Below are positions 3,621 to 19,327 of a stretch of DNA of 19,327 bases, piece after piece. The position numbers were made by a program, and so were the translations under genes. Each line of letters begins with the position of its first letter. Positions within the stretch are counted from its first letter, which is position 1. The stretch is from Candidatus Iainarchaeum sp. Its GTDB lineage: Archaea > Iainarchaeota > Iainarchaeia > Iainarchaeales > 0-14-0-20-34-12. Where the stretch lies: NCBI GenBank assembly GCA_030649345.1, contig JAUSKK010000019.1, positions 1 through 19,327 on the forward strand. The letters run 5' to 3'. The notes under the pieces were generated by a model that was not told the DNA's origin, searched no databases, and saw only the letters and a program-made list of their open reading frames with translations.

Positions 3621-3631
3621 TTCGGCAACCC

Positions 3632-3639: not shown

Positions 3640-3661
3640 TTGTAGTTCTTAATAAGTTACT

Positions 3662-4444: not shown

Positions 4445-4470
4445 AAAATAATCTAAAAGGAGAAAACACA

Positions 4471-4710
4471 ATGCAAGATAAAAAAACAGAAATACCTGGA
4501 AGACCATTTGATGACTTAAACAAAGCAGTTGGAGAAACTGTCTTGGTGAAACTGAAAGGCGAAAAAACAGTTCGCGGAATCTTAAAAGCATTTGATGTAC
4601 ACTTAAATATTGTATTGGATCAAGCCGAAGAATTAGAAAATGGAGAAGTTAAAATCAAGCACAGCAAACTCATGGTTCGCGGCGACTCCATTATTATGAT
4701 TGCTTTGTAA
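4471..4710 (+). CDS. Sm-like archaeal protein (SmAP/LSm)
   Basis: 79 aa with AGGAG 9-13 nt upstream of the ATG. Sm1 (VLVKLKGEKTVRGILKAFDVHLNIVL) and Sm2 (KLMVRGDSIIMI) motifs are present. Confidence 0.9.
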   Translation: MQDKKTEIPGRPFDDLNKAVGETVLVKLKGEKTVRGILKAFDVHLNIVLDQAEELENGEVKIKHSKLMVRGDSIIMIAL

Positions 4711-4711
4711 A

Positions 4712-5086: not shown

Positions 5087-5108
5087 ACAAACAAAAATAC
5101 TGAAAAAC

Positions 5109-5118
5109 AATTATTAAA
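5109..5118 (-). promoter_or_regulatory. TATA-like element (TTTAATAATT on the minus strand) for the 4712-5086 ORF
   Basis: Positioned -23 to -32 from ATG 5086, in the divergent spacer shared with tRNA-Ala. Confidence 0.35.
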
Positions 5119-5150
5119 GGTTTCAGTCCATTATTTAATATCCAACACTT

Positions 5151-5222
5151 GGGCTCGTAGCGTAATGGTATCGCGCACCCATGGCATGGGTGAGACTACG
5201 GGTTCGATTCCCGTCGAGTCCA
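5151..5222 (+). tRNA. tRNA-Ala (anticodon GGC)
   Basis: Hand-folded cloverleaf: acceptor GGGCUCG/CGAGUCC with the alanine identity pair G3:U70; D-arm GCGU-AAUGGUA-UCGC; anticodon arm CACCC-AUGGCAU-GGGUG; T-arm ACGGG-UUCGAUU-CCCGU; discriminator A. CCA is not encoded. Confidence 0.9.
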
Positions 5223-5283
5223 CTTAAAAATCAACTTACAAAAATACAGACATACTATCCATCAGTCTGTATGAGATCACATT

Positions 5284-5814
5284 ATGAGAAAATCAAATCC
5301 AAAAACAAGAAAACCTAAGAGTATTGTGAAAAAACCATTTAATCCATATCGAACCATGAAAAGAACTATTACCAAAGCAAGCTTTGCTGTTCGAAAAAGA
5401 GCAGGTCCTCAATCTAAACGAAGCCCCAATGAAAAAATGAAACGCGTCAAACATGTTTTTAGACAAAAAATGATTCAGCCATTAATTAAATATGCATTGG
5501 ATAAAAACGGAATTACGAATCTTGAAATAAGAGCTTTTTGTTATCAAAGATATCCATATGGAGAAGAAAATGAAGGACTCCAAAAAGGCCTTAGAGAACT
5601 ATTTAAAAAAATCTGCACAAAATATTCTGAAGGCCAAGCTTCACAAGTTATAAATGACTTCAACGACTTAGCGGCCAATATGACTTCACTTTTAGTGCAA
5701 CGGCCGCCAATCCATCCAAATCCTGTGACTGATTTAGCACAAGTACAAGCATGGTCAAGAAGGGTATTAAATGCAGCACAAAAGCAAATGGATAACTTGA
5801 AAAGAAAAAAATAA
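5284..5814 (+). CDS. Hypothetical protein with strongly basic N-terminal ~60 aa (orphan)
   Basis: 176-aa ORF starting at ATG. The N-terminus MRKSNPKTRKPKSIVKKPFNPYRTMKR...RKRAGPQSKRSPNEKMKRVKH is Lys/Arg-rich, followed by a helical C-terminal half. No family recognised. Confidence 0.5.
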   Translation: MRKSNPKTRKPKSIVKKPFNPYRTMKRTITKASFAVRKRAGPQSKRSPNEKMKRVKHVFRQKMIQPLIKYALDKNGITNLEIRAFCYQRYPYGEENEGLQKGLRELFKKICTKYSEGQASQVINDFNDLAANMTSLLVQRPPIHPNPVTDLAQVQAWSRRVLNAAQKQMDNLKRKK

Positions 5815-5973
5815 ACACACAAACAATTGGGTGCACACGCAAAACGCTTTAGCAAAAATACAATCGTAAACTAGAATACTGTAAAATTTAGAAAAGCCTC
5901 TGAAACTCACAGAATACAACCAGTACATGCGTGTACATAGCTTTTTAAGAATAAAAACTCTAATGTAGAAAGC

Positions 5974-7335
5974 ATGCAAGAAGATGATTTACTGATTCAG
6001 TCCATTAAAAAACTGCGTTCTTTGAATGTTTCTGACCAAGAAATTTTGTTAAACTTAAAAGAATTGGGCGTAGACGAACCTAAAGCTAGAACCTTGTTAG
6101 CGCAAAGCAAACAAACACAAAACGAATTATTAAAAGAAACTGCAAATTTATCGGAAACTGAATCCGAAGAAAATGTTTTATTGGATGAAGTCATGGAAGA
6201 CAAAACACAAGTACAATCAATTAAGCCAATTCCGGAAGCTACTCAAATTTCTAAATTATGGGAAAAAGGAATTCTGGTAACCATTACTCAAAACTTGGAG
6301 GAAATGCAGCGCTTAAAAAAAGACATTGGGTTAGTTGTCGATTCTAAAGTAAAAGAAAGCATGGAAAAAGAAAGGAAAAAAATGCAAACCTTGCTGGACT
6401 CACAGCGTATTTTGTTAGGCGAAAAAGTGAATGTAGAATTGCAAGGAAAAGAAAAAGAAATTACGGAAATCATTAATTCCAAAATACAAGAATTAACCGA
6501 ATTGGCTAAAGAAATTCAGGCCAATTTGCAGGACATTGAGCGTTTAAAAATAGGCCAACAGCAAGTCTTGAAAGAATTTGAAGTCAAAAAACAAGAACTC
6601 ATTCAAACCAAAAACAAAATGGTTATTGAAATGAATTCTGAATTAATTAAAGAAAAAAGTTCAGCCGAAGAAATATTAAACCAGTTAAAAGAAAAACTGG
6701 GAGAAATAGATAATCGTGTGGATAAATCATTGGAATTAGAATCTAAGATTGTCGAAGGATTGGTAGCCGATGCAGAAGACCAGATTACGCAATTAAAAGA
6801 TGAAAAGAAAAGCGAACTCAGTGCAGACATTGAAGCTGAGCTTGAAAAATTAGAAGTAATTCGAAAAAAAATTGATCCAGACAAATTACAGGAAAAAATA
6901 AAACAATTGGATTTATTCAAAAAACAAATCGAACAGGCATTTACAGGAAAAGAGCAGGAAATTGAATTATTCAAACAACAACTTCAAGTGAAATCTATGG
7001 AAGCAGCCAAAGAAGCTGCGCAGGAAAAAGTAAGCGAAAGTGCTGCAATCGTACGCAAAGAAATGGATGTAGAAGGCTTCAAAACGCAAATGAAAGGATT
7101 GGAAGAATTCAGAAAACAATTTGTAAACGCCTTGCAGGAAAATACAGATCAATTTAATGAAAAATTGACAATGTTTAATGAAAGCACAGTGCAAATGATG
7201 AAAGAGTATGATTCTAGAGTGAAAAAAATTGATTCCAAAATCGAAGAGCTTGACACTTTTGCCAAAAACTTTGCGCAAGAATTGGGATTAGTACTGGATG
7301 AATTAATCAAAAAAGAAAAAAACAAGAAAAAATAA
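5974..7335 (+). CDS. Long coiled-coil protein (Glu/Lys/Gln-rich) with a small N-terminal helical domain
   Basis: 453 aa. Residues ~90-450 are nearly continuous heptad-like E/K/Q/L sequence. The C-terminal third carries a recurring L-[DE]-x-F-[KRA]-[KQ]-[QN]-[IFL] motif (LDLFKKQI, IELFKQQL, LEEFRKQF, LDTFAKNF). The N-terminal LIQSIKKLRSLNVSDQEILLNLKELGVDEPKARTLL looks like a UBA/TS-N-type three-helix unit, which is tentative. Confidence 0.7.
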   Translation: MQEDDLLIQSIKKLRSLNVSDQEILLNLKELGVDEPKARTLLAQSKQTQNELLKETANLSETESEENVLLDEVMEDKTQVQSIKPIPEATQISKLWEKGILVTITQNLEEMQRLKKDIGLVVDSKVKESMEKERKKMQTLLDSQRILLGEKVNVELQGKEKEITEIINSKIQELTELAKEIQANLQDIERLKIGQQQVLKEFEVKKQELIQTKNKMVIEMNSELIKEKSSAEEILNQLKEKLGEIDNRVDKSLELESKIVEGLVADAEDQITQLKDEKKSELSADIEAELEKLEVIRKKIDPDKLQEKIKQLDLFKKQIEQAFTGKEQEIELFKQQLQVKSMEAAKEAAQEKVSESAAIVRKEMDVEGFKTQMKGLEEFRKQFVNALQENTDQFNEKLTMFNESTVQMMKEYDSRVKKIDSKIEELDTFAKNFAQELGLVLDELIKKEKNKKK

Positions 7336-7339
7336 TAGT

Positions 7340-7714
7340 TTACAAGCTTTTTAGTTTTACATATTTTTGATACGCTTGTTCTACATGTTCGTGTCTTACG
7401 TATTGTTTGTGGTTTCGAAAACCGCCGGCAAATGATTGGGGAACATGCATGAGTTCATGAATCAATACTTTGGTTTGAGCTGTTGCATCCAGTTTGTTAA
7501 ATTTTTCAGAGATTAATTCAATTACATAGCAGGGCTTCATATTCATGCCAATCTGCAAGGCTTTCGAAGTTCCATGAATGCGAGCATAAGCCCTAGCTTT
7601 TGAACCAAAACTAATAATGCACGAAATACGTGAATGATCAATGTAATCAAAGTTTAAAGTGCTGGCAATTTCATGCGCTTTGTTTGTCCATTCTGGAGAA
7701 AAAGAATACTTCAT
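7340..7714 (-). CDS. Predicted zinc metallopeptidase (HExxH; archaeal COG4900/SprT-like small peptidase)
   Basis: I prefer ATG 7714 (124 aa, MKYSFSPEW...) over the TTG at 7729. It has an HELMH motif followed by VPQSFAGGFRNH, and an upstream SFGSKARAYARIHG. This matches my memory of the small archaeal predicted-metallopeptidase family. Confidence 0.6.
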   Translation of the reverse strand: MKYSFSPEWTNKAHEIASTLNFDYIDHSRISCIISFGSKARAYARIHGTSKALQIGMNMKPCYVIELISEKFNKLDATAQTKVLIHELMHVPQSFAGGFRNHKQYVRHEHVEQAYQKYVKLKSL

Positions 7715-7767
7715 ACACAAACAAAACAACTAAAAGAATTAAAAAAGAAGTATTGTGAAAACAAAGT

Positions 7768-7965
7768 CAAGCCTATCGAGTGAAACGCAATTAAAATCGA
7801 AGATTTTAATGCGTGATTAAAACTTAGAGTTTTAATACGCCCAGCTTAGGCGCATTAAAACCAAGGGTTTTAATCGCGAAGATAGGCTAACACGCCAACC
7901 AGGTTATACTGCAAAATCGAAGATTTTGCATATACGCAAAATTACAATTTTGCGGTATGGTTGAA
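7768..7965. ncRNA. Candidate structured RNA / palindromic-unit cluster of unknown class (strand undetermined)
   Basis: There are two nested domains. AGCCTATC 7770-7777 pairs with GATAGGCT 7881-7888 and encloses hairpins 7786-7813, 7816-7836 and 7851-7878. CAACC 7896-7900 plus ATAC 7906-7909 pair with GTAT 7955-7958 plus GGTTG 7959-7963 and enclose hairpins 7910-7930 and 7935-7954. Arm differences between units are compensated. No Rfam family was identified by eye. Confidence 0.4.
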
Positions 7966-8610
7966 TTATTGGAAAACATTTTGCGGTTTGAACATTTTCT
8001 TTCTTCCTTGTTTTTTCCAGCCAGGCTTATGTGAACCTCTAGCTTTTTCTGCGCCTTTTCCTTTATTGCGCAAGCCTCGGGATTTTCTACCTGAACTGGT
8101 TAAGCCTCTCCAAACTCTTCCGCGATGATTTCCATTCAATAACCAGTTGACGTCTTTGTCAGATTGAACGGCTGGATTTAAAGAATCAATTAAAATGACT
8201 TCAAAATAATGCTTGGTTCCATCGTTTCCAACAGAATAACTGTTTAAGACTTCACAATTTGGAAACTTTCGTGCAGCTCTTTGTTCTGCAATGGATTGAA
8301 TGCTTAAGTTTCGGGTTAATTTATTAATTCCCATTCGCTTAGGTCTGCGGGCCATAGTTGGTCTTGTGTGCATTCCTGAACCTTTTCTGACTCGAACGCG
8401 GGCAACCACAAAACCTTGTTTGGCTTTATAACCTAAAGTTCGGGCTCTAGCTAAATTCGTAGGCCTTTGCACTCGAAGAACAGCATGTTTTTCTTTACGG
8501 TAAGTCTGCAATCTGTCAGCATTGATTTTTTTATAATTGAAATCTTTGTCTTTTTTACCCTTAAACTCATTTTGAAAGGTTTCTTGAATATACGTTAACG
8601 CATTGGTCAT
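7966..8610 (-). CDS. rpl15e: 50S ribosomal protein L15e
   Basis: I prefer ATG 8610 (214 aa, MTNALTYIQETFQ...) over GTG 8619, because L15e proteins begin with this Y-I-x-E/D-x-W/F-type segment. Diagnostic stretches: RPTNLARARTLGYKAKQGFVVARVRVRKG, RPKRMG, EVILID, NHRGRVWRGLTSSGRKSRGL. Confidence 0.92.
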   Translation of the reverse strand: MTNALTYIQETFQNEFKGKKDKDFNYKKINADRLQTYRKEKHAVLRVQRPTNLARARTLGYKAKQGFVVARVRVRKGSGMHTRPTMARRPKRMGINKLTRNLSIQSIAEQRAARKFPNCEVLNSYSVGNDGTKHYFEVILIDSLNPAVQSDKDVNWLLNGNHRGRVWRGLTSSGRKSRGLRNKGKGAEKARGSHKPGWKKQGRKKMFKPQNVFQ

Positions 8611-8729
8611 AAAAGTCACTTAAAAACAGTTATAGAATAAATAATCCGGATATTTTAAAAAGGAATACTTTAAAGGCAAATTAAACGAAAAAGGCTCTAT
8701 TTTTAAGAAATTCTGAGAAAATACACTAT

Positions 8730-9749
8730 ATGGGAAGCACTAGCACAGAATTAATTTTGACGTGTGGAGAAAAACGCACAGACATATTGAAAGAACAGGC
8801 AGTCCAATGCAGGCATTGCAGTCAACCAGCAAAAATTCATTTACCGTACACAAAATTAGATTTATGCGCTAATCACTTCACGCACTTGTTGGAAAAACGA
8901 GTGAAGTATACTGTTCGAAAATACAAACTTATTCAAGCCAAAGAAAAAATTGTAATCGGTGTCAGTGGAGGAAAAGACTCCATGACTACATTGCATATTT
9001 TGGGAAAATACTATTCTAAGAGCAATCCAATTGAAGCCTTAATGATTGACGAAGGAATTCATGGATACAGAGACAGTGCAGTCCAAGTTGGAATCAATAT
9101 GTGCAAACAATTGGATATTCCGTACAAGGTTGTACGTTATCAAGATGAATTTGATTTAAGTATGGACAAAATTGCGAACTTAATTGAAAAAAATCCAGAC
9201 TTAGGTACAACATGTAGTTTTTGCGGAGTCATGCGCAGACAATTGTTGAACAAATATTCCAGAGAAATGGGGGCAGACAAATTAGCTACAGGACACAATT
9301 TAGATGACGAAGTTCAAAGTGTGTTAATGAATATTACACAAAATAGCTATGATTCTTTTATTCGCACTGGAGCCACTACTGGAATTAAAAGTTTTCAAGG
9401 ATTTATCCCCAGAATTAAACCATTGTATGAAATTCCAGAAAAAGAAATTATTGCCTATACTGCGTTCAATAATATTGAGCATTATTCGCATGATTGTTGT
9501 CCGCATTCCTGGCAAGCCAAACGCAATGATTTTAGAAAAATTTTAAATGACTTGGAAACCAAATATCCTGGAACCAAATACGGAACATTAAATTTCTTTA
9601 ATGCAGTTAAAGACAAACTTCGCACAATAGAAGTAGACAAAATCAAAACACTCGATATGGAATACTGTAAAGAATGCGGAGAACCGAGTGCTAAAGCAAA
9701 ATGCAAAGCTTGTGAAAAGATAGAGATTTTAAAAAAACAACCTATCTAA
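8730..9749 (+). CDS. ttuA: TtuA/Ncs6(NcsA)-family tRNA 2-thiouridine synthetase (PP-loop ATPase with Fe-S and zinc-finger cysteines)
   Basis: 339 aa. It has an N-terminal CxxC...CxxH finger (CRHCSQP...CANH), the PP-loop SGGKDS, central CSFCGVMRR plus a later DCCPHS (cluster-ligand pattern of TtuA/Ncs6) and a C-terminal CKECG...CKAC finger. Whether the target is U54 or U34 cannot be told from sequence. Confidence 0.8.
9727..9734 (+). promoter_or_regulatory. Possible TATA element (TTTTAAAA) for tRNA-Val inside the 3' end of the ttuA-like CDS
   Basis: It lies 27-34 nt upstream of tRNA position 1 (9761). Only 11 nt separate the CDS stop from the tRNA, so any dedicated promoter must lie within the CDS. 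Confidence 0.25.
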
Positions 9750-9760
9750 GTAGTTTAATC

Positions 9761-9831
9761 AGGCCCGTGGTTTAATGGTAGAATGGCACACTTACACTGT
9801 GTTGAAAGGAGTTCGATTCTCCTCGGGCCTA
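9761..9831 (+). tRNA. tRNA-Val (anticodon UAC)
   Basis: Hand-folded cloverleaf: acceptor AGGCCCG/CGGGCCU (A1:U72); D-arm GUUU-AAUGGUA-GAAU; anticodon arm GCACA-CUUACAC-UGUGU; 4-nt variable loop; T-arm AGGAG-UUCGAUU-CUCCU; discriminator A. CCA is not encoded. Confidence 0.88.
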
Positions 9832-9837
9832 CTTTAA

Positions 9838-10398
9838 ATGAAAAATATGCTCGAAACAGATTTTGTTGAATTTTTTGACTTAAATAAACTAAAACAAATT
9901 CAAGCCTTTTTAGGGAACTCAAAAATAGTTGTTTTGAAAACCGTGAAAGTTAAAGAAGAAATCAAAGACTTAAAAGAACAATTTCCTAAACTTGAATTTG
10001 GAACCTGGATTAATTCAAAAAATGAGCGCATGATTCAATCTATGGGTTCTCAAACTAAATATTTAGTTGTGCCTGCAGAAACTTTACAAGATTACCAGTT
10101 TTCAGTTAACCACAAGCAAGTACAATTTATTGTGCCTAATTTAAAACGAAAACTAGAACTAGACCTCCAATTAGCTGGATTGTTAGGCAATGCCGAAAAG
10201 ATAATCTTAATTCCTTTTTCTGAATTTTTAACAGCCAAACCTTTTGAAAGAGCAAAAATGATTGAAAACTTTAAAAAATTATCTAAGATATGCAAAAAAG
10301 CAAAAATAGAAATGCATTGGATTAGTTTAGCTCAAAACGAATATGACTTAAGAAATATGAAAGACTTCAAAAACTTAGAAAGCTTAATTCAAAAATGA
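9838..10398 (+). CDS. rnp3: RNase P protein component 3 (Rpp30/Rnp3-like)
   Basis: 186 aa. The C-terminal two-thirds (YLVVPAETLQDYQFSVNHKQVQFIVPNL...ILIPFSEFLTAKPFERAKMIENFKKLSKICKKAKIEMHWISLAQNEYDLRNMKDF) aligns by eye with my recollection of Pyrococcus Rpp30 ([28 protein letters not shown]...[43 protein letters not shown]). It needs an HMM check. Confidence 0.6.
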   Translation: MKNMLETDFVEFFDLNKLKQIQAFLGNSKIVVLKTVKVKEEIKDLKEQFPKLEFGTWINSKNERMIQSMGSQTKYLVVPAETLQDYQFSVNHKQVQFIVPNLKRKLELDLQLAGLLGNAEKIILIPFSEFLTAKPFERAKMIENFKKLSKICKKAKIEMHWISLAQNEYDLRNMKDFKNLESLIQK

Positions 10399-10419
10399 AC
10401 AATCAATCAGTGAAAAAAT

Positions 10420-10977
10420 ATGAGTACACAAAAAAAATTACCTTCCCACAAACAATGCTTGAACTGGATTCAGGAGAAAAATCCAGCCAACATTGTACAG
10501 CATAGTTTGCAGGTCAACAAAGTTGCAATGTTTTTAGGAAAAAAATTACAAGAAAAAGGACAAAAAATTGATTTAGAGTTATTGGATCGAGCTAGTTTAC
10601 TGCATGACCTAGATAAATTTGAAACTCTGAAAACAGGCAACCATGGATTTACAGCAGGAAAATGGTTAAGAAAAAAAGGATTCAAACGAATAGCAGAAGT
10701 CATAGAACACCATTTAACCAACCGAATATTGGATTCAGATTTTAATGAATGGCCTTGGGAAGACAAGTTAGTCAATTATTCAGATCGAAGAATTGTACAT
10801 ACTAAAATTGCCAGCCTAAAAGAACGATTTGCTTACTTGATTCAAACATATGGAACTACACCAGAACGAAAAAATACTTTAAAAAAAGCAGGACAAAAAT
10901 TCTTGAAATTTGAAACACAATTAAAGAAAATACTTAAAAGTTCTTTAAGCTCTAACCAGCTCAAAAAACAGATTTAA
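10420..10977 (+). CDS. HD-domain metal-dependent phosphohydrolase
   Basis: 185 aa. H...HD signature: VQHSLQV (His), LLHDLDK (HD), IEHH further downstream. Substrate unknown. Confidence 0.75.
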   Translation: MSTQKKLPSHKQCLNWIQEKNPANIVQHSLQVNKVAMFLGKKLQEKGQKIDLELLDRASLLHDLDKFETLKTGNHGFTAGKWLRKKGFKRIAEVIEHHLTNRILDSDFNEWPWEDKLVNYSDRRIVHTKIASLKERFAYLIQTYGTTPERKNTLKKAGQKFLKFETQLKKILKSSLSSNQLKKQI

Positions 10978-11041
10978 TAATGAGTGATGTTCTGCATAAA
11001 GCATCCTAACGATATTTGCTAACTATCGACATCACTCATTA
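10978..11041. repeat. Perfect 13-bp inverted repeat (TAATGAGTGATGT / ACATCACTCATTA) enclosing a 38-nt spacer with inner stems
   Basis: The arms are at 10978-10990 and 11029-11041, starting at the base after the HD-gene stop codon. There is an inner 5-bp stem CGATA 11010-14 / TATCG 11024-28 and a mini-stem TGC-ATAAA-GCA. Confidence 0.7.
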
Positions 11042-11067
11042 AATAAACTACATATTCTAAATAAGTC

Positions 11068-11427
11068 ATGCTAAGAGAGGATAAATTTGCAATTCTAGCC
11101 ATAGCCGTAAGCTTGTTAGGCCTAATTTTATTGTTTTATTATACAGAAACCCAACAACCAATTTTAGTCAAAGTAAGTGAAATTACGGAAGAAAAAATAG
11201 GCTGGCAAATTGAAACCCAAGGCCGAGTCAAAAATCTATATTCTGGAAAAAACTTTCTTGCATTTGAATTAATAGATCAAAACAGTATTTCTGGAATTTT
11301 GTTCAATCCAAATACAATTCAAGCAGCTGTGCTTCAAGAAAATTTTAAAGTAAAAATTCAGGGAAAAATAGAAAAACGAAACAAACAACTCCAAATTCAA
11401 GTACAGGAAGTGAGTTCGTTTGACTGA
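11068..11427 (+). CDS. Membrane-anchored OB-fold protein (tRNA_anti-like OB domain after one N-terminal TM helix)
   Basis: 119 aa. TM helix FAILAIAVSLLGLILLFYY, then the OB pattern IETQGRVKNLYSGKNFLAFELIDQNSISGILFNP....FKVKIQGKIEKRNKQLQIQVQEV. Confidence 0.6.
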   Translation: MLREDKFAILAIAVSLLGLILLFYYTETQQPILVKVSEITEEKIGWQIETQGRVKNLYSGKNFLAFELIDQNSISGILFNPNTIQAAVLQENFKVKIQGKIEKRNKQLQIQVQEVSSFD

Positions 11428-12583
11428 ATTTGGTTTACTGCTTACTTTTGTTTTAGCCGGATGGATTCTTGGAACTTTTACTGGATTTATTCCAGGAATT
11501 CACGGAAATCTAATTGCTGGATTGCTGGTACTGTTTTTTAGTTCCAGCAACGAATATCTTGCCATGGCAATTATTTCAGCCAGCATTACCCATGTGTTTT
11601 CAGAATGGATTTCTGCACAATTGCTTCAATGGCCAACCGAAACAGGATACCTTTTTCAGGTATATTCAAATTCCAAAACATCTTTTCAAGAATTAATTCA
11701 CCAAGGATTTATTGCAGGATTGCTTGCGATCATTTTTGCGTTAGGGTTAAGTTCAATTCTTTTTTTCATTCAACCCATTCTTCAAACAATCACATTTCAT
11801 TTGCTTATTTTAGTATTGGGCTTGTTGATTGTCAGTGCAGGAACTTGGAAAAAAACAATTTACACAATTGCAATTATTGGATTGGCTGGAATTCTGGGAT
11901 TAATTGCATTAAATTCATTAACATTTCGCGATCCATTGCTTCCCTGCATTACTGGATTTTTTGGAATCAGCACTTTGCTGCAGGAATTGTTTTTAGAAAA
12001 AATGAAAACAAAAGAACTCACGTCAACTCAGTGGAGTTGGAAAAATAATGCAATCGGAACAGGAATTGGATTAAATATTGCATTAATTCCCAGCATAACC
12101 ATCGGAGAACAAACTTTAGCAGCACAAGAAATATTTGGAAAAAAGAAAGGATTGAATTGGCAGAATACAATTGCGTGCGCCAGTATAGCTTCTTTGGTTG
12201 CTTCTTTTATTTTAGCTGAAACCAATAATCTTGCACGAACTGGACAATCTGCATTAATGAAGGAAATGCTGTCTGGAAAAGAAAATTTAATTCTAATATT
12301 GGGAGTAATTCTTTTCACATTGGGATTATCTTATTTGAGTCATTCGTTTTTTGCAAAAAAAATTTCTGCAGGCATGCAAAACTTTCCAGTAAAACTATTT
12401 TCGGTAATTTCTTTAATTTTTTTAATTGCCATCAACTTTATTTTAGGCAGTTGGCTGGGATTATTTTTGTTAATTATTTCAACCAGTATTGGCTTGCTTC
12501 CTTTGTTAACTGGAACCCATCGAAGCAGCTGCATGAGTTTTTTATTAATTCCTACTTTGATTTTTTATTTTCCGTTCGGTTAA
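11420..12583 (+). CDS. Polytopic membrane protein, DUF112/TctA-like (archaeal COG1784-type)
   Basis: 387 aa with at least 9 hydrophobic helices. The N-terminal GTFTGFIPGIHGN resembles the DUF112 G-x-x-PG signature. The start is TTG at 11420, overlapping the upstream stop by 8 nt and preceded by GGAAGTGA 7 nt upstream. There is no in-frame ATG for about 46 codons. Confidence 0.6.
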   Translation: MTEFGLLLTFVLAGWILGTFTGFIPGIHGNLIAGLLVLFFSSSNEYLAMAIISASITHVFSEWISAQLLQWPTETGYLFQVYSNSKTSFQELIHQGFIAGLLAIIFALGLSSILFFIQPILQTITFHLLILVLGLLIVSAGTWKKTIYTIAIIGLAGILGLIALNSLTFRDPLLPCITGFFGISTLLQELFLEKMKTKELTSTQWSWKNNAIGTGIGLNIALIPSITIGEQTLAAQEIFGKKKGLNWQNTIACASIASLVASFILAETNNLARTGQSALMKEMLSGKENLILILGVILFTLGLSYLSHSFFAKKISAGMQNFPVKLFSVISLIFLIAINFILGSWLGLFLLIISTSIGLLPLLTGTHRSSCMSFLLIPTLIFYFPFG

Positions 12584-12622
12584 TAGATTTATTTAAATCC
12601 TGAACTCAAATAACATTACTGT

Positions 12623-12991
12623 ATGTATTTAGTAAAACAGCAGCTAATCGATTCCTTATTGGAAGCTGCGCGCATCGTTTATCCAAATGAATTTATTTGC
12701 TTAATTGGATCCAAACAAAACAATCAAATCTTAGATGATTTAGTGGTAGTTCCTGCAGTTTACGGAGATAGTTATTCGTTCATTCACTCTCATTTAGTGC
12801 CTATAGATCCAACCATTAAAGGGTCTGTGCATTCGCACCCAACACAATCCAATCAGCCAAGTACAGCGGATAAACAAGCATTTCAAAAATTAGGCAGTGT
12901 GCATTTAATTATCGGATACCCGTATACTATAGACTGTATTCAGATGTACGACTCGCAAGGAAACCCAATTCATTTTGAGGTAATTCAATGA
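12623..12991 (+). CDS. JAMM/MPN+ (Mov34) family metalloprotease
   Basis: 122 aa with a complete JAMM motif: E23 ... H70-S-H72-x7-S80-x-x-D83 (HSHPTQSNQPSTAD). Confidence 0.8.
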   Translation: MYLVKQQLIDSLLEAARIVYPNEFICLIGSKQNNQILDDLVVVPAVYGDSYSFIHSHLVPIDPTIKGSVHSHPTQSNQPSTADKQAFQKLGSVHLIIGYPYTIDCIQMYDSQGNPIHFEVIQ

Positions 12992-14553
12992 GCAAAAATA
13001 AAGCAAAACCAGTTGTATTGATTGTAATGGATGGATTTGGCTTAGGTAAACCAAATTCAGGAAATGCAATTTTTTTAGCTAAGCCTAAAAACTTTAATAA
13101 TTACTGGAAAACATATCCTCGTACTTCATTGAATTGCATTGGAAAATTTGTTGGCTTAAGTGGAAAAACTCAAGGCAATTCTGAAGTTGGACACTTGCAT
13201 TTAGGTGCAGGAAAAATTGTCTGGCAGCCTATGGAATTGATTGATCGAGCCATTCAAAACAAACAATTTTACAAAAATAAAGCCTTTCTTAAAGTAATTC
13301 AAAATGTAAAAAAACACAAAACACAATTACATTTAATGGGCTTGTGTTCAAATCAAGGAGTCCATGCTCAATTGCAACATTTGTTTGAATTAATTAAATT
13401 GGCAAAAAAACACAAACTCAAAAAAGTATTCATTCACTGTTTTTTAGATGGACGAGACGTACCCGAACGCAGTGCAATAAAGTATGTGCAGCAAATTCAA
13501 ACAGAATGCAATAAACTAAAAATTGGAAAAATTGCTTCCTTGATTGGAAGATATTACGCCATGGACAGAGATCAAAATTGGGAAAGAACTCAAACAGCCT
13601 ATGAATTAATTACTCAAGGAAAAGGAAAACCCATTCAAGACCCCATACAAGGAATTCAAACAATATACCAAGAAGGAAATGAAACAGATTACTATATTGA
13701 ACCTTTGGTTGTGGTAGAACAAACCGGAAAGTCAGTAAGTATAATTCAAGAAAACGACGGAGTTATTTTTTTCAATTTTCGCACAGATCGAGCCCGGCAA
13801 TTAACTCAGGCAGTCACGGATTCAAAATTTGATAAATTTAAACGAAAAAAAATTCCAGTTACTTTTGTCAGCATGACCGAATATAATCCTAAATTTAAAA
13901 CATTGATTGCGTTTCCTCAAGAAAAAATTAAAACAAATTTAGGAAAAATAATCAGCCAACACAGGCTAACTCAATTACGGATTGCGGAAACTGAAAAATA
14001 TGCACATGTAACTTTCTTTTTTAATTCACAAACTGAAAAGCCTTCCAAAGGAGAACACCGTATTTTGATTCCGAGTCCAAAAGTTAAAAGTTATGACTTA
14101 AAACCAGAAATGTCAGCCTATAGAATTAAGGATACTTTAATTCAAGAATTGGAAAAAAATAAATATGATTTTGTCTTGATTAATTTTGCCAACCCAGATT
14201 TAGTGGGGCATTCCGGAAAACTAAATGCAACCATAAAAGCAGTTCAAGTAGTAGATGAATGTATTGGAAAAATTGTTGAAAAAGTACTGGAAAAAAATGG
14301 AATTGTTTTATTAACTGCAGATCATGGAAATGCTGAAGAAATGGTATACTCGAATGGTTTACCTAAACCCAGTCATACGCAAAATAAAGTTCCTTGCATT
14401 TTAATTTCAAACAAACCTAACTGGAAAAAAATAAAACTTAAAAAAAATGCAGAAATAAAGGATATAACACCCACAATCCTTGAATTATTGAAATTAAAAA
14501 AACCCAAAGAAATGACTGGAAAATCATTGATTCAAAACCATAAGCAGAATTAA
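12988..14553 (+). CDS. gpmI: 2,3-bisphosphoglycerate-independent phosphoglycerate mutase, bacterial GpmI type
   Basis: 521 aa, collinear with my recollection of Bacillus iPGM: VVLIVMDGFGL, GNSEVGHLHLGAGKIVWQ, FLDGRDV, GRYYAMDRDQNWERT, LRIAETEKYAHVTFFFN, PEMSAY, ANPDLVGHSG, TADHGNAEEM, EMTGKSLI. Its ATG overlaps the JAMM stop (ATGA). Confidence 0.92.
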   Translation: MSKNKAKPVVLIVMDGFGLGKPNSGNAIFLAKPKNFNNYWKTYPRTSLNCIGKFVGLSGKTQGNSEVGHLHLGAGKIVWQPMELIDRAIQNKQFYKNKAFLKVIQNVKKHKTQLHLMGLCSNQGVHAQLQHLFELIKLAKKHKLKKVFIHCFLDGRDVPERSAIKYVQQIQTECNKLKIGKIASLIGRYYAMDRDQNWERTQTAYELITQGKGKPIQDPIQGIQTIYQEGNETDYYIEPLVVVEQTGKSVSIIQENDGVIFFNFRTDRARQLTQAVTDSKFDKFKRKKIPVTFVSMTEYNPKFKTLIAFPQEKIKTNLGKIISQHRLTQLRIAETEKYAHVTFFFNSQTEKPSKGEHRILIPSPKVKSYDLKPEMSAYRIKDTLIQELEKNKYDFVLINFANPDLVGHSGKLNATIKAVQVVDECIGKIVEKVLEKNGIVLLTADHGNAEEMVYSNGLPKPSHTQNKVPCILISNKPNWKKIKLKKNAEIKDITPTILELLKLKKPKEMTGKSLIQNHKQN

Positions 14554-14577
14554 ATAAAACACTGGCTTAAGTTATAC

Positions 14578-15006
14578 ATGAATGACCGCGGGCAATTTAG
14601 TGTAGATTTGCTTTTAGCTGTAGGCGCTGTTTTTACATTTATAATAGCCTTGCAAGGTATTGCCGCAACTATGGGGTCAACGCAGGCAGAACACAGTATT
14701 ATTATCCAAGAAAGCGAATTGTCTTTGAAAATCGCCAGCCTATTCAATGAAAGCCGAATACTTCAAGAAGGAAAATTCAAAATCGAATATGCAACTCCAA
14801 ACTTAAAAGTTCCTGGAAAAAACAATCAACCCAATTGCAGCATACGCATTGAAACTAACCCAAAACAAGTCGTGGTAGCCTATGATTTAGATGGACAGAA
14901 TTTAGAAGCAAGTTCTCAAATAGTATTAACTGAAGATATCCTAAATCAAATGATTTTTCCAGAAAATTTAAATTGCGGAGAAAAATTAACCATTGAAAAA
15001 AGGTAA
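14578..15006 (+). CDS. Class III signal-peptide protein (archaeal type IV pilin-like), 1 of 4
   Basis: 142 aa. The N-terminus MNDRG/QFSVDLLLAVGAVFTFIIAL has a short charged leader with R at -2 and G at -1, then a Q-x-S-x-D-x-x-x-L (DUF361-like) and a hydrophobic helix. There are two Cys in the mature part. Confidence 0.7.
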   Translation: MNDRGQFSVDLLLAVGAVFTFIIALQGIAATMGSTQAEHSIIIQESELSLKIASLFNESRILQEGKFKIEYATPNLKVPGKNNQPNCSIRIETNPKQVVVAYDLDGQNLEASSQIVLTEDILNQMIFPENLNCGEKLTIEKR

Positions 15007-15011
15007 CTGAT

Positions 15012-15530
15012 ATGAACGATCACGCACAAATTTTTAGCTTGGATGCAATCATTTCTTTAATTTTAGTAATTTTTGCATTAGGGATTATTTTTGGGATACT
15101 GGAAACCAATTCCTATAATTTAAAAGAACAGCAAATATTTGAAGAACTACGAATTGCTGGAAGAACTGCAGCCAATGTTTTGATTGCCAGTCCAGAGCTA
15201 ACTTGCACACTAACCAATTCTTCTGGAACTGAATTATTTTCAATCACCCATTGTTTAGATATTCAAAAAGTTCAAGGAATTTCAACACAAGATTTAGAAT
15301 TGCCTTCAGATTATCAATTTAGTATTCAGCGTACAGGAATACTTTTAGCTGGAGAAATGATTCCGGAAAATAGTGCACACATTTATTCAGAAAAACGAAC
15401 TGTGTTTTTTTACGATAGCTTAGCTGAACCCATTACCAAACAAAAATGGATGGAATGCAAGACAGGAAATCCTGCCTGCGCACTTACTGAACCCGAAGAA
15501 GTAATGATTTCCATATGGAGGGTTCCATGA
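15012..15530 (+). CDS. Class III signal-peptide protein (pilin-like), 2 of 4
   Basis: 172 aa. MNDHA/QIFSLDAIISLILVIFALGIIFGIL is the same leader architecture as the upstream gene. Four Cys. The start is 5 nt after the upstream stop. Confidence 0.65.
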   Translation: MNDHAQIFSLDAIISLILVIFALGIIFGILETNSYNLKEQQIFEELRIAGRTAANVLIASPELTCTLTNSSGTELFSITHCLDIQKVQGISTQDLELPSDYQFSIQRTGILLAGEMIPENSAHIYSEKRTVFFYDSLAEPITKQKWMECKTGNPACALTEPEEVMISIWRVP

Positions 15531-15826
15531 AGAAAGGATTTATTTTCACCATCGATGCCATAACTGCATTGTTATTGGTAATGGCTTTGGTTGGATTATT
15601 TGCCACCAGCCAAGAAAACAATCCAACAGTTAATGTGCCAGTAGATTCTTTAAATCAAAAAACACTAGATCAAAGTATTGCATTCAATTATTTTAATCAA
15701 ACTGGAAATCAAGCCAGCACTCCAACAGCCCAATACAGGGCATGCAATATTCAATATATTTACGATTTTACAGAAACACAATTGGAAAAAAAAGTAAAAG
15801 AACGAAAAATATGTGAGGAAATTTAA
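15527..15826 (+). CDS. Class III signal-peptide protein (pilin-like), 3 of 4
   Basis: I prefer ATG 15527 (99 aa, MKKG/FIFTIDAITALLLVMALVGLF). GGAGG at 15517-15521 lies 5 nt upstream, and this ATG overlaps the upstream stop (ATGA). The ORF-track start at 15515 would add MEGS. Two Cys. Confidence 0.65.
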   Translation: MKKGFIFTIDAITALLLVMALVGLFATSQENNPTVNVPVDSLNQKTLDQSIAFNYFNQTGNQASTPTAQYRACNIQYIYDFTETQLEKKVKERKICEEI

Positions 15827-15828
15827 GC

Positions 15829-16347
15829 ATGAATAATAACGGATTGTATGTAAGTGCTCTGGCATTTATTGCAGTATTGGTTATGGCATTTGTTTTAATG
15901 AATTCCGCCAGCAAAAGCGATATTCAGCCATTTACTGGTTTAAGTTTATTGAAAGCTAAAACAAACCTAGAAAACACTCGTGAAATATTGGACTCAGCAG
16001 TCAGCGATGCTATTCTAGAATATCAAATTCAAAGTCCTGTCTGCGGAGCAGATTTAAGTTCACAGCCAGCACAAATTCAAACATTTTTAAATCAAGCAAT
16101 CATTCAAATTAATTCAACCAAAAAATGCAGTTACCAGATTACAAATTATTCTGGACGATTTGTAGAAAGCATTATTACTGTTTTGATTTCATGCACTGAA
16201 AATGAAAAAAATTTAGCCACAGAATTTTCACAAGAATTTGTTTTCAAAAAAAGAGCCAGTACCAATCAAGTGGGTGCTGATTGCGCAGTTCAAATCCAAG
16301 ATGCGGATAGCACATTAATTGAAGTTGAAAAAATATTCCAGCCTTAA
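15829..16347 (+). CDS. Pilin-like protein with N-terminal hydrophobic helix, 4 of 4
   Basis: 172 aa. MNNNG/LYVSALAFIAVLVMAFVLM. GAGGAAA lies 8-14 nt upstream and the start is 2 nt after the upstream stop. Four Cys. The leader is less canonical because there is no basic residue at -2. Confidence 0.55.
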   Translation: MNNNGLYVSALAFIAVLVMAFVLMNSASKSDIQPFTGLSLLKAKTNLENTREILDSAVSDAILEYQIQSPVCGADLSSQPAQIQTFLNQAIIQINSTKKCSYQITNYSGRFVESIITVLISCTENEKNLATEFSQEFVFKKRASTNQVGADCAVQIQDADSTLIEVEKIFQP

Positions 16348-16348
16348 C

Positions 16349-16365
16349 TTTGGTTTTTCTTTTTA
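16349..16365 (+). terminator. Oligo-T tract (TTTGGTTTTTCTTTTTA), candidate archaeal terminator for the pilin-like operon
   Basis: A T-rich run directly after the stop at 16347. Archaeal termination typically uses oligo-T. It overlaps the 3' end of the convergent gene. Confidence 0.3.
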
Positions 16366-17205
16366 CTTAACTTTTTTCTTTTTATTTAATTTTTTCAATT
16401 CTTTACTTACACCAGAATCATACTGAATGGCTTTTTTGGGCTGGAGTGCAATTAATTCCGGCAAACCCAATGACAAGCCCAAAGAACGCAAAGCATGCTT
16501 TCGCAGTAAATCATGCGAGGAATGAATTTTTTCAGCAACCGGCAAAGCCATAGCTATTTTCATAAATTCTGGATCCAAATACGGAGCACGCAAATCTAAA
16601 TTTAAATAATCTGCCAAAGCTAAATCTCGTGCTAAATTATCCTGCCATAAATTTTCCAATTTTTTCCAAGACAAATTTTGAACAGCTAACTCTCCTCGAT
16701 CAAATACTTTTCTAAATTCAGTATACCCTGCAAACAATTCATCGGCTCCTTGACCGCAAAAAACTGTTTTAAATCCAGAAATTTTTACAGCCCGCATGGC
16801 TAAAAATTCAGCTAAAGCAATTTGAATTTGCAGAAAATTATCTGTGCCTAAAATTTTTTTTACTTCTACAGCAAAGACATCTACATCTGTTTTAGTGATG
16901 GTTTGAAATTTTAAAGGCAAATTTAAAAGATTTGCAGCCATATGAGCTCGAGCAAAAACACTCGAATTCGAAGTACCGGCGCAAAACAAAACAGTATTTT
17001 TTACTTTTTGACTTACAGCTAAAGCAATCAAACTAGAATCAATGCCGCCGGAAAACAAGACTGCTGCTTTGGAAACATTTTGAGTTTGGGTTTGAATGGA
17101 TTGATCAAATGCTTTTTGAAGATCTTTTAAATTAGATGATTTGGGTAAATTTTTTTGCAATAAAAGAATATTTTCAGTATTTTTAAAAAAGTCAACTGCA
17201 GACAT
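16363..17205 (-). CDS. Asparagine synthetase B-like synthetase domain only (PP-loop ATP pyrophosphatase, no glutaminase domain)
   Basis: 280 aa. PP-loop AAVLFSGGIDSS, GQGADELFAGY and LDLRAPYLDPEF...LPVAEKI match AsnB C-terminal domain signatures. There is no N-terminal Ntn (Cys2) glutaminase domain and no room for one upstream. Confidence 0.7.
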   Translation of the reverse strand: MSAVDFFKNTENILLLQKNLPKSSNLKDLQKAFDQSIQTQTQNVSKAAVLFSGGIDSSLIALAVSQKVKNTVLFCAGTSNSSVFARAHMAANLLNLPLKFQTITKTDVDVFAVEVKKILGTDNFLQIQIALAEFLAMRAVKISGFKTVFCGQGADELFAGYTEFRKVFDRGELAVQNLSWKKLENLWQDNLARDLALADYLNLDLRAPYLDPEFMKIAMALPVAEKIHSSHDLLRKHALRSLGLSLGLPELIALQPKKAIQYDSGVSKELKKLNKKKKVK

Positions 17206-17277
17206 ACTCTTTTTTTGAACAGAAATCCGTAATAATATACCTTTGTTCAGAAAATAAATAAAAATGCAAAAATTTGT

Positions 17278-19074
17278 TTAATGCAAAGCATAATATTGGT
17301 TGGCTTTTTTTTGCTCTAAATCCAGCAAAGAACCAGGTTTATTGGCACGCAATCTGCCGGATTCAGGGTCTCTTCGAAAAGTAATATCTAAAGTTTTCAA
17401 AAAGTCATTCATTCCTTGAATCAATTCTTGCGCTGGCTTTCCTTGGCCTTTCCGGGAAGGAATTCCATCAAACACCATTATGCGATCGGCAACATAATCT
17501 TGAAATAAAATATCGTGATCCACAACCAAAATAGGCAAATCTTTAACAAACGCAATATGGCGTAAAATATCCGCAATGACTAAACGATCTTCGATATCAA
17601 TAAAGGCTGTAGGTTCGTCCAATAAAACTAAATCGCATGGCTTGCATAAAGTTACTGCAATGGCAACCTTTTGAAGTTCTCCTCCGCTTAAAGTATCTAA
17701 TTTTTTTTCCAAAAATTTATGCAAATCTAATTTTTGTTCAAATTCTGTCCGGAATAATTCAAAATCAATTTTTTCTCGAAACAACAATTCGTTAACCGTA
17801 ATATTTTCTTCGGTTTTCAAGTATTGCGGTTTATAGCTTACTTTTAACTTAAAATTCATAGAATCATTGTCTGATTTTTCTACGCCGGCCAGCATTTTTA
17901 CAAACGTACTTTTTCCAATTCCGTTGGCGCCCACTACAGCAACTACTTCGCCGCGCATAATTCTTCCTTCGTCTACTGTTAATTTAAAATTGGAAAATGT
18001 TTTCTCCAGAGAAGGATAAGCCAAAAATACTGTTTTCTTTTCTTGTTTATTGGAATTAATACTAAATTTTAGTTCTTTTTTTCGAATACGTACATTTTCT
18101 GTTTTCAAATATCCTGCTAAAAATTCATTCACTCCATTTTTCGAACTCCGTGTTTCACTGACAACTCCGTATACTGCAGGTTCTCCAAAAAATACATTTA
18201 CATAATCTGCTAAATAATCCAAAACTGCTAAATCGTGTTCGACTACAACTACTATTTTTCCGTTTTCTGCAATTTTTCTCACTGCTCCAGCCATAATAAG
18301 TCTTTGTTTGACATCCAAATAAGAAGTGGGCTCATCCAAAAAATACGCAGAAGATTCTTTCAATAAAGTAGCTGCAATGGCAACACGCTGTAATTCTCCG
18401 CCAGATAATTCAGACAATTGATTGTCTAAAATGGAATCAATTTGCAATTCTTTGGCTAATTTTTCCAATTCTTTGCGTTCATCTGTTTTTTTTAATAAAT
18501 CTCTAACTTTTCCTTTAAACTGTTCTGGAATTTTGTCAATAATTTGAGGTTTAAACGAAAAACTTAATTTTTTTTCTTTGGCTTGCGTAAAAAAAGTCTG
18601 CAGTTCTTTTCCACGAAACTGTTTAATGATTGCAGCATAATCTCCAGGCTTAGAATAATTCCCTAAATTTGGAATTAAATTTCCGGTTAAAATTTTCAAT
18701 GCAGTTGTTTTTCCTACACCATTTCGTCCAACCAAAGCCAAAACATTTCCGTGTTTGGGCGTAGGCAATTTGTATAAACGAAACGAATTTTTGAAAAATT
18801 GATGAACTGGATTTTGGGCTAGTTCTTTAGGCAAGTTCACAATCCGAATGGCTTCAAACGGGCAGGCTGGAACACATAACCTGCAGCCAATGCATAAATC
18901 TTCATCAATTACAGCTTTATTAATAATTGGATCAATGGCAATGCAAGGTTTGTTTTGCCGATTAATGGGACAAGCACGCATGCATTCCAAAGCACATTTT
19001 TGCGGATTACATAGTTCTCTATCTACAACCGCAATGCGCGTACTTTGATTTGCTAAAGGCAAGGAAATGGACAT
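17278..19074 (-). CDS. abcE1: ABCE1 / RNase L inhibitor homologue (ribosome recycling ABC ATPase)
   Basis: I prefer ATG 19074 (598 aa, MSISLPL...RIAVVDRELCNPQKC) over TTG 19095. It has an N-terminal double 4Fe-4S ferredoxin-like domain (CNPQKCALECMRACP; CIGCRLCVPACP), two ABC cassettes (GRNGVGKTT, LSGGELQR, DEPTSYLD; GANGIGKST, LSGGELQK, DEPTAFID) and a C-terminal RRDPESGRLRANK. Confidence 0.93.
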   Translation of the reverse strand: MSISLPLANQSTRIAVVDRELCNPQKCALECMRACPINRQNKPCIAIDPIINKAVIDEDLCIGCRLCVPACPFEAIRIVNLPKELAQNPVHQFFKNSFRLYKLPTPKHGNVLALVGRNGVGKTTALKILTGNLIPNLGNYSKPGDYAAIIKQFRGKELQTFFTQAKEKKLSFSFKPQIIDKIPEQFKGKVRDLLKKTDERKELEKLAKELQIDSILDNQLSELSGGELQRVAIAATLLKESSAYFLDEPTSYLDVKQRLIMAGAVRKIAENGKIVVVVEHDLAVLDYLADYVNVFFGEPAVYGVVSETRSSKNGVNEFLAGYLKTENVRIRKKELKFSINSNKQEKKTVFLAYPSLEKTFSNFKLTVDEGRIMRGEVVAVVGANGIGKSTFVKMLAGVEKSDNDSMNFKLKVSYKPQYLKTEENITVNELLFREKIDFELFRTEFEQKLDLHKFLEKKLDTLSGGELQKVAIAVTLCKPCDLVLLDEPTAFIDIEDRLVIADILRHIAFVKDLPILVVDHDILFQDYVADRIMVFDGIPSRKGQGKPAQELIQGMNDFLKTLDITFRRDPESGRLRANKPGSLLDLEQKKANQYYALH

Positions 19075-19081
19075 AAAGATC

Positions 19082-19294
19082 TTAACTGAAAGCAATCATG
19101 AACCCAACTAAAATAAACAACAAACTAAAGCCAATAACTGCACCCCAAAGCAAAAAATTTAACATAGACAGCATAGCTTGAACTGGATGAATGATGCCTT
19201 GAAACACAAAGACAAATACAGCTGCCAAAATTAAGAAGCCTAAGACACTTAAAATTAAGCCTTCGCGTGCAATTGCCATAAATATATTATCCAT
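19082..19294 (-). CDS. Small hydrophobic membrane protein (2-3 TM helices), hypothetical
   Basis: 70-aa ORF starting at ATG, almost entirely hydrophobic. Its stop lies 7 nt upstream of the preferred ABCE1 ATG on the same strand. There is no family signal, and a short hydrophobic ORF in AT-rich DNA may be fortuitous. Confidence 0.4.
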   Translation of the reverse strand: MDNIFMAIAREGLILSVLGFLILAAVFVFVFQGIIHPVQAMLSMLNFLLWGAVIGFSLLFILVGFMIAFS

Positions 19295-19327
19295 TATAGG
19301 TTTATTAAAAGGAAATGTTCGATTATG

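Follow-up and report, generated by a model that had tools for sequence, protein, structure and literature searches.

The subject of this analysis is a block of four small genes, g1 to g4, in a 19,327-nucleotide (nt) stretch of Candidatus Iainarchaeum sp. DNA (contig JAUSKK010000019.1, positions 1 to 19,327 of the forward strand; this whole stretch is called 'the window' below). The four genes are read as the distal minor-pilin module of an Epd or 'system 1'-type pilus typical of Iainarchaeota, composed of uncharacterised minor-pilin families. That their products belong to a type IV pilus system as processed, pilin-like components is concluded with good confidence, while a specific role in filament priming or at the pilus tip, suggested by gene position and by analogy with bacteria, is put forward tentatively. 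A class III pilin-like nature had been proposed in a preliminary description made from the sequence alone, and it is now supported by family-wide N-terminal motifs, by an AlphaFold2 model of g2 and by synteny, in relatives, with a complete pilus machinery including an EppA-type prepilin peptidase. The families are new, being absent from Pfam and NCBIfam and with no published description found, and the type of system itself is known; pilin-like 'dark matter' in the pilus loci of DPANN archaea has been noted in general terms (PMC6393860).

Layout and N-terminal signatures of the four genes

The gene block and the tract that follows it are arranged in the window as listed here, with protein lengths in amino acids (aa).

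14578–15006, forward strand: g1, 142-aa pilin-like protein (basis: open reading frame and hydropathy)
15012–15530, forward strand: g2, 172-aa pilin-like protein
15527–15826, forward strand: g3, 99-aa pilin-like protein, counted from the MKKG start
15829–16347, forward strand: g4, 172-aa pilin-like protein
16354–16364, forward strand: T-rich tract TTTTTCTTTTT, read from the sequence, directly 3′ of the g4 stop

The four tightly coupled reading frames with these lengths, their junctions (5 nt between g1 and g2, a 4-nt ATGA overlap between g2 and g3, 2 nt between g3 and g4) and the 24-nt gap that separates the g1 start from the gpmI stop at 14553 had all been described before and were confirmed from the sequence. 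The listing of open reading frames also offers a longer version of g3 starting at 15515, but a GGAGG motif at 15517–15521, located 5 nt 5′ of the g3 ATG, supports the start at 15527. Of the two internal Shine-Dalgarno sites described earlier, the GGAGG at 15517 holds, whereas the second, placed at 15814, had counted a preceding T, the GAGGA ahead of the g4 start beginning at 15815. The T-rich tract sits in the gap toward a convergent asparagine-synthase-like gene; archaeal terminators are oligo-T, and the tract is the probable end of the transcription unit.

Each of the four proteins has the short leader and hydrophobic helix attributed to it, with one strongly hydrophobic stretch spanning residues ~5–30 (19-residue Kyte–Doolittle maxima of 2.4–3.1). 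The even cysteine numbers (2, 4, 2 and 4 in g1 to g4) were likewise verified, and the cysteine columns are conserved separately within each of the four families. In a loose six-frame scan of the window (short leader, G or A, then 20 hydrophobic residues), no further stand-alone pilin-like reading frame was found, the other matches falling on internal starts within multi-pass membrane proteins or on the OB-fold anchor protein described below.

The families were assembled from related loci. One g2 relative lies on the 831-kb contig Ga0209514_10000011 (locus L002), and 24 further loci came from a pattern scan of GTDB species genomes; most are metagenome-assembled genomes of Candidatus Iainarchaeum or other Iainarchaeota (Diapherotrites, DPANN), and the complete genome of archaeon GW2011_AR10 (CP010424.1) is among the loci with g1–g4. 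Positional orthologues were taken from 23 (g1), 24 (g2), 23 (g3) and 23 (g4) loci and then aligned. Each single gene is thus represented in 23–24 loci, and all four stand in identical order at 21 of them.

In the window, the predicted cleavage sites (marked by a slash) are G/QFSVD in g1 after the leader MNDRG (Q+1, S+3, D+5), A/QIFSLDA in g2 after MNDHA (Q+1, S+4, D+6), G/FIFTIDA in g3 after MKKG (acidic residue at +6) and G/LYVSALAF in g4 after MNNNG, the helix of g4 having no acidic residue. These features recur throughout the families. The g1 family follows [KR]G/Q-x-S-x-D, with Q+1 in 22/23 members, S+3 in 23/23, D+5 in 22/23 and a conserved cysteine pair in 18/23. In the g2 family ([KR]G/QIFSLDF; consensus MxxKG/QIFSLDF), Q+1 and D+6 are found at 24/24 loci, and Q6, D11 and the four cysteines are invariant or nearly so. 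The g3 family conforms to KG/[FIV]-x-F-[ST]-x-[DE]-A, with F+3 and an acidic residue at +6 each in 22/23 members, and its G4, C73 and C96 are invariant over the 23 orthologues. Finally, the g4 family is described by KG/[FLVI]-[YAF]-[ST] and has essentially no conserved acidic position from +1 to +8 (22–23 orthologues). Leaders in the orthologous families are 3–9 aa long and end in G at nearly every locus, with A in one g1 and one g2, and position −2 is K or R in 22/23 (g1), 22/24 (g2), 20/23 (g3) and 18/23 (g4) cases. In the window this position is basic in g1 (R) and g3 (K) but not in g2 (H) or g4 (N).

The substrates of EppA in Methanococcus maripaludis have leaders of 5–13 aa ending in G, followed by Q+1 and E+5 (PMC3875500). 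By this yardstick, g1 fits with D in place of E, g2 fits with a register shift of one residue, and g3 (F+1, D/E+6) and g4 fit only in part. The DUF361-like acidic register formerly attributed to the first three proteins applies only to g1 (Q+1, S+3, D+5), being shifted by one residue in g2 and g3, and the PF04021 profile itself matches none of the four families. Comparison of the family profiles by hhalign gave 97.6% over 98 columns for g1 against g2, and 96.5% over 33 N-terminal columns for g3 against the N-terminus of g2. Taken as sequence patterns, the family N-termini are strongly supported as class III signal-peptide signatures. The 4-nt ATGA overlap of g2 and g3 is found at 22/23 loci and a 4-nt overlap of g3 and g4 at 17/22; such near-universal overlaps imply coupled translation. 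Judged from the positional orthologues at 23–24 other loci, with their N-terminal motifs and cysteine columns kept, the g1–g4 pattern is far beyond chance.

Searches with g2 enlarged its family. A word-index search returned one homologue, 63% identical and full-length, on a contig of 1.6 kb that preserves the gene order, and word-index searches with the g2 and g4 alignments gave five matches each. A HMMER search of 1.84 billion cluster representatives yielded 224 relatives at E ≤ 1e-3, of which 118 reach E ≤ 1e-10; they range from 108 to 222 aa, and their N-termini are markedly uniform, on the pattern M-x(1-8)-[KR]-G/Q-I-F-S-L-D-F-L. Among the 150 g2 representatives listed, 137 have [GAS]/Q-x4-[DE], and 121 of these 137 have K or R at −2. 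No close relative turned up in the first genome-contig scan or in either of the metagenome scans, for which the lineage of the window itself served as seed. The same sequence as that of the window occurs in SRR13727527.

Gene order in Iainarchaeota and other archaea

In the relatives, mapping by tblastn and open reading frame listings places g1–g4 in a long super-locus. Its first part comprises a T2SSE-type ATPase, two T2SSF/TadC-like genes and two to four small pilins (46–115 aa); its second part, a Peptidase_A24 gene of the EppA type, two larger Q+1/E+5 pilins and a DUF2101 membrane protein; and its third part, genes for a membrane-anchored OB-fold protein, a TctA-like protein and a Prok-JAB protein, often a phosphoglycerate mutase, then g1-g2-g3-g4, with ABCE1 nearby. 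The small upstream pilins carry the motif [KR][GA]/Q-x-[SA]-x-E-[YFL] and give faint or sub-threshold PF04021 matches, and the Flp-like short pilins of the super-locus are 46–59 aa long with Q+1/E+5. Wherever 6 kb or more of upstream sequence was available (15 loci), the Peptidase_A24 gene lies 3–9 kb upstream of g2; 12 of these 15 also have both T2SSF genes inside the fetched flank, and 11 of those 12 have the ATPase too. An Arc_PepC domain is on record for the L002 copy of the peptidase. In the same locus (L002, 1–1611), the T2SSE-type ATPase of the pilus is 1104 aa long and contains an intein (Intein_splicing and LAGLIDADG_3 matches) together with an HTH_3 match.

The nearest described relative of this arrangement is the Epd or 'system 1' pilus of M. 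maripaludis, with its EppA peptidase, minor pilins EpdA–D, Flp-like major pilin MMP1685 (74 aa; PMC3875500), two TadC-like platforms and DUF2341 adhesin-like proteins; a pilus of 'system 1' type has been reported in a few DPANN archaea (bioRxiv 10.64898/2026.04.22.720090). The super-locus of the relatives shares with it the T2SSE ATPase, two T2SSF genes, Peptidase_A24 with Arc_PepC, Flp-like pilins of 46–59 aa, DUF2101 and several larger pilin-like genes; g1 and g2 share the Q+1 typical of EppA substrates; and gene-order equivalents of g2–g4 occur in a locus of Methanobacteriota. Differences lie in the use of D for E, in the acidic residue of g2 and g3 at +6 instead of +5, in the unmatched PF04021 profile, in the detachment of the window module from the machinery and in the size of g3 (~100 aa) and g4 (~170 aa, without DUF2341) as compared with the 700–800 aa equivalents of other archaea. 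The comparison with the Epd system covered the make-up of the locus and the N-termini.

Two loci outside Iainarchaeota are informative. The first (L031, a metagenome-assembled genome of Methanobacteriota) encodes an EppA-type peptidase (A24 with Arc_PepC), then a pilin above the Pfam threshold for PF04021, then a DUF2101 protein, and on the opposite strand a second PF04021 pilin below threshold (20.2 bits against a cut-off of 23.7). Three consecutive genes of 299, 710 and 372 aa come next and begin with KRG/QIFSLDL, DKG/FIFTVDA and DKG/YAFTPLA. By hhalign, the 299-aa protein against the g2 profile and the 710-aa protein against the g3 profile reach 95% probability over the N-terminal helix, whereas the alignment of the g4 profile with the 372-aa protein is not significant, so that the equivalence of g4 outside Iainarchaeota rests on its position and its acid-less N-terminus. 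The second locus (L032, a metagenome contig) contains, in order, proteins starting with RRG/QVSLEF (PF04021), KRG/QLSLDL (g1-like, 145 aa), RKA/QTSLEL, RRA/QIFSLDA (343 aa), RKG/FVFTLDA (730 aa) and KRRA/FLINS (811 aa). The last of these occupies the position of g4, has no acidic residue and matches DUF2341 (E = 1.8e-19), a domain not detected by Pfam scans in the window g4 or its 22 orthologues. Makarova, Koonin and Albers (2016, PMC4858521) assign DUF2341 to PilY-like adhesins with an inferred place at the pilus tip, encoded in clade 1 loci of Methanococci and related archaea. At the g3 and g4 positions the Iainarchaeota proteins are much smaller than those of L031 and L032. The same order of N-terminal types in both loci indicates that the g1–g4 order is older than Iainarchaeota. 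A tubulin-like gene of the CetZ type (Tubulin and CetZ_C matches) is also found at 6723–7817 of L032, within 1 kb upstream of its run of pilin genes.

The genes preceding g1 in the window were identified by Pfam and are given as context.

11068–11427, forward strand: membrane-anchored OB-fold protein
11420–12583, forward strand: TctA-like membrane protein
12623–12991, forward strand: Prok-JAB protein
12988–14553, forward strand: gpmI-type phosphoglycerate mutase

This order, continued by g1–g4 and then by the convergent asparagine-synthase-like gene and ABCE1, is that of the proximal part of the super-locus. Upstream of the OB-fold gene, the window holds unrelated housekeeping genes; M50 protease, eIF5A, an LSm protein, L15e, a TtuA-like protein and an HD-domain protein, together with ABCE1, are among the genes that make up the rest of it. 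The absence of assembly machinery noted in the preliminary description is therefore correct for the window but not for the module, since the machinery lies 3–9 kb upstream in each of the 15 relatives whose flank is long enough; its absence here is read as a lineage-specific rearrangement, and the machinery is presumed to be present elsewhere in the source genome. The conserved proteins of the window are only 44–56% identical to their counterparts in the fetched loci (ABCE1, 44–55%), and its source accordingly stands as a deep and so far unsampled relative of Iainarchaeota. The pilus genes of M. maripaludis are spread over at least four loci (PMC3875500), and pilin genes located apart from their machinery are normal in archaea.

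Several observations concern the neighbours of the module. Wherever an Iainarchaeota locus extends far enough upstream, the TctA-like and JAB genes lie directly upstream of g1–g4 or of the phosphoglycerate mutase gene, and the membrane-anchored OB-fold gene was detected in the window, L007, L011, L012 and L016. In the window, this OB-TctA-JAB set is retained beside g1–g4 despite the lost pilus machinery. A tblastn search of L031 (Methanobacteriota) and L032 (metagenome) detected neither TctA nor JAB. The TctA-like family, arCOG04469, consists mostly of stand-alone proteins predicted to transport carboxylates (PMC5898192). This description of the family, and the failure to detect the genes in the loci from outside Iainarchaeota, are the reasons why the TctA-like, JAB and OB-fold proteins were not adopted as pilus components.

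The slot between JAB and g1 is occupied in most loci by a phosphoglycerate mutase, which belongs to one of three different types: gpmI in the window, L009, L013, L016, L019–L023 and L025; the archaeal apgM type in L007 (8319–9524), L008, L010–L012 and L015; and the cofactor-dependent gpmA type in L014 (2625–3317) and L018. No such gene occupies the slot in L002, L024 and L026–L030. The pattern resembles non-orthologous gene displacement in situ, within a string of genes that otherwise relates to the pilus. Two loci carry a discordant taxonomic label: L019 (JAFCCH010000039.1, deposited as 'Thaumarchaeota archaeon') and L023 (JAFCCG010000054.1, deposited as 'Chloroflexi bacterium') both have g1–g4 of the Iainarchaeota type beside an archaeal ABCE1, L019 also having the upstream part with the pilus genes, and both are probably mis-binned contigs.

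Further genes of the window are recorded apart from the module. A DUF2226 protein (161 aa) is directly followed by a MinD/ParA-type ATPase (260 aa) at 3135–4444; MinD/FleN-type ATPases are listed as accessory genes of archaeal pilus loci (PMC4858521). At 2072–2410 on the reverse strand, a 112-aa reading frame, half the normal size of a TATA-binding protein, has a single-repeat match to that family (PF00352, E = 2.3e-5, residues 41–108). At 5974–7335, a 453-aa protein very rich in E and K, probably a coiled coil and with no Pfam match, is flanked by a 176-aa basic protein, also unmatched in Pfam, and by a 'PhageMetallopep'-family protein (7340–7729, reverse strand), in surroundings that are otherwise housekeeping.

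Predicted structure, database searches and competing explanations

The AlphaFold2 model of g2, built on an alignment of 99 sequences, has a mean predicted local distance difference test score (pLDDT) of 96 and a predicted template-modelling score of 0.82. A single helix runs from residue 3 to 59, and after it come six β-strands and two short helices. At 57 residues the helix is about twice a membrane span, as in pilins. On the order of these elements, rather than on the packing of helix against sheet, the predicted secondary-structure layout of g2 is confidently that of a type IV pilin. In the model, the conserved Cys65 and Cys81 belong to two strands that follow one another, while Cys149 and Cys156 are spaced by seven residues close to the C-terminus; such an order of elements would fit two disulfides. 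The structure prediction proposed earlier as a check thus gave a helix-then-strands layout for g2 but was unusable for g4.

A number of results weigh against a pilin assignment or against parts of it. First, no ATPase, platform or prepilin peptidase gene was found within the 19.3-kb window. Second, none of the four window proteins had a relevant match in Pfam or NCBIfam, PF04021 (Class_IIIsignal/DUF361) not appearing even at E ≤ 10, and over the 99, 23, 23 and 22 family members PF04021, PF07790, the NCBIfam pilin models and the pseudopilin families of the type II secretion system (T2SS) were unmatched (E ≤ 0.1–1); yet the same Pfam scan does pick up PF04021 in the neighbouring pilins of L031 and L032. 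Third, no sequence match in the PDB was obtained with the single window proteins or with the g1 and g2 profiles, and a Foldseek search of the PDB with the g2 model returned nothing at E < 0.1 (best E 0.16, template-modelling score ~0.14). The top matches, namely LC3, SUMO and T-cell receptor chains (template-modelling score ~0.14), were rejected as noise, and the modelled head of g2 has no demonstrable likeness to any solved pilin. Fourth, the g4 model, built on five sequences, is unreliable (pLDDT 55.6). Fifth, the leaders of g2 (MNDHA) and g4 (MNNNG) in the window lack K or R at −2, as does that of the closest g2 homologue (MNANG); a peptidase of altered specificity or a relaxed constraint may account for the loss. 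Lastly, the proposed tip or priming role leans on gene position and on analogy with bacterial minor pilins.

Sub-threshold Pfam matches to DUF7287 and DUF7288 were noted over the N-terminal helix in 8 and 4 of the 99 g2 members (best E 0.0023 and 2.9e-4), and also in the large g3-like proteins of L031 and L032. These are haloarchaeal families to which Pfam assigns no function; with all matches below gathering scores, membership is unsupported, and no literature was found on DUF7287/7288/7289, DUF7266 or DUF7261/7262.

Three other explanations have been considered. In the first, g1–g4 would be processed class III proteins that form a short pseudopilus or a surface complex like the bindosome, possibly acting with the OB-fold, TctA-like and JAB proteins in substrate uptake. 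The persistence of OB-TctA-JAB with g1–g4 in the window, where the half of the locus that holds the machinery is gone, speaks for it. In addition, substrate-binding proteins that form no filaments also use class III signal peptides (bioRxiv 10.64898/2026.04.22.720090), and the bindosome of Sulfolobus is a proposed surface-anchored complex. However, the heads are small, Cys-rich and devoid of a recognisable binding domain, the loci outside Iainarchaeota bear g2-g3-g4-like genes with neither TctA nor JAB detected by tblastn, and arCOG04469 proteins are for the most part stand-alone predicted transporters; this explanation is held to be improbable.

According to the second explanation, the lineage has lost its pilus machinery and the four genes are a relic, either decaying or recruited to another role. 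This would account for the absence of machinery from the 14.5 kb upstream, where relatives carry it, and for the lost positive charge of the g2 and g4 leaders. It agrees poorly with four intact reading frames in which all family-conserved cysteines, Q+1 and D residues are kept, with a 63%-identical relative that has a full-length g2 and the same gene order, and with the preservation of translational coupling and of Shine-Dalgarno-like sites. A relic is accordingly judged very unlikely.

Hardly credible, finally, is the view of g1–g4 as ordinary uncleaved single-pass signal-anchor proteins whose prepilin resemblance and pilus neighbours reflect inherited gene order only: the missing profile and structural matches to pilins and the two leaders without K/R at −2 would suit it, but four unrelated heads share an invariant G at residues 3–9 and family-specific motifs over 23 deeply diverged genomes (ABCE1 44–55% identical), which would be unexpected of plain anchors, the same N-termini occur beside EppA-type peptidases and PF04021 pilins outside Iainarchaeota, and the g2 helix has about twice the length of a membrane span.

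Proposed mechanism and significance

The Flp-like pilins of 46–59 aa encoded upstream in the relatives are better candidates for the major subunit, by analogy with MMP1685, and g1–g4 are therefore read as an accessory set. The suggestion of the preliminary description that they form a minor or tip module rather than the major filament subunit fits the data, namely the separate Flp-like pilins, the acid-less g4 and the DUF2341 domain at the g4 position of L032; the tip role in particular stays a matter of interpretation. Coupling, constant co-occurrence, three acid-bearing members with one acid-less member and an adhesin domain at the g4 position elsewhere would all fit a priming or tip complex.

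A bacterial parallel is offered by GspH-I-J-K of the T2SS and FimU-PilV-W-X of the type IVa pilus, where four different pilin-like subunits are also co-encoded and translationally coupled. The N-terminal helix carries the conserved acidic residue in three of the members but not in g4, which we take to parallel GspK. In contrast to the bacterial proteins, the heads are much smaller, and no sequence or fold similarity was detected. The comparison is a functional analogy at best.

On the reading of g1–g4 as a distal minor-pilin module, each pre-protein would enter the membrane through its N-terminal hydrophobic helix, and an EppA-type prepilin peptidase, presumably encoded elsewhere in the genome, would cut off the leader of 4–5 residues after G or A. 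The mature subunits would then assemble by way of their N-terminal helices and form a small complex, in which g1–g3 would supply the acidic residue (+5 or +6) and the acid-less g4 would stand at the top, with disulfides stabilising the small heads. Such a complex might prime a filament of short Flp-like major pilins and remain at its tip. A bolder version, considered doubtful, makes g1–g4 the archaeal counterpart of the bacterial four-subunit priming and tip complex, conserved from Methanobacteriota to Iainarchaeota and in the latter miniaturised to a disulfide-stapled core of ~600 residues. If true, no natural tip complex would be smaller than g1–g4, and the set would lend itself well to the study of archaeal pilus priming. 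An extension of this version, bolder still and less likely, would have g1–g4 and the always adjacent membrane-anchored OB-fold, TctA-like and JAB proteins make up a pilus-linked uptake module (e.g. for nucleic-acid scavenging) in these auxotrophic archaea of small genome.

A dependence on contact with other cells is assumed for DPANN archaea; pili are prime candidates for that contact, and the pilins of these archaea are mostly missed by annotation pipelines. Through the present analysis, four 'hypothetical proteins' become four defined pilin-like families that extend across the phylum, each with an explicit N-terminal signature and with a profile that can be used for annotation. The families are also tied to machinery of the Epd type and, in other archaea, to larger equivalents that bear adhesin domains. 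It thereby brings to light no new kind of system but a compact candidate for the structural study of pilus priming and tip assembly in archaea.

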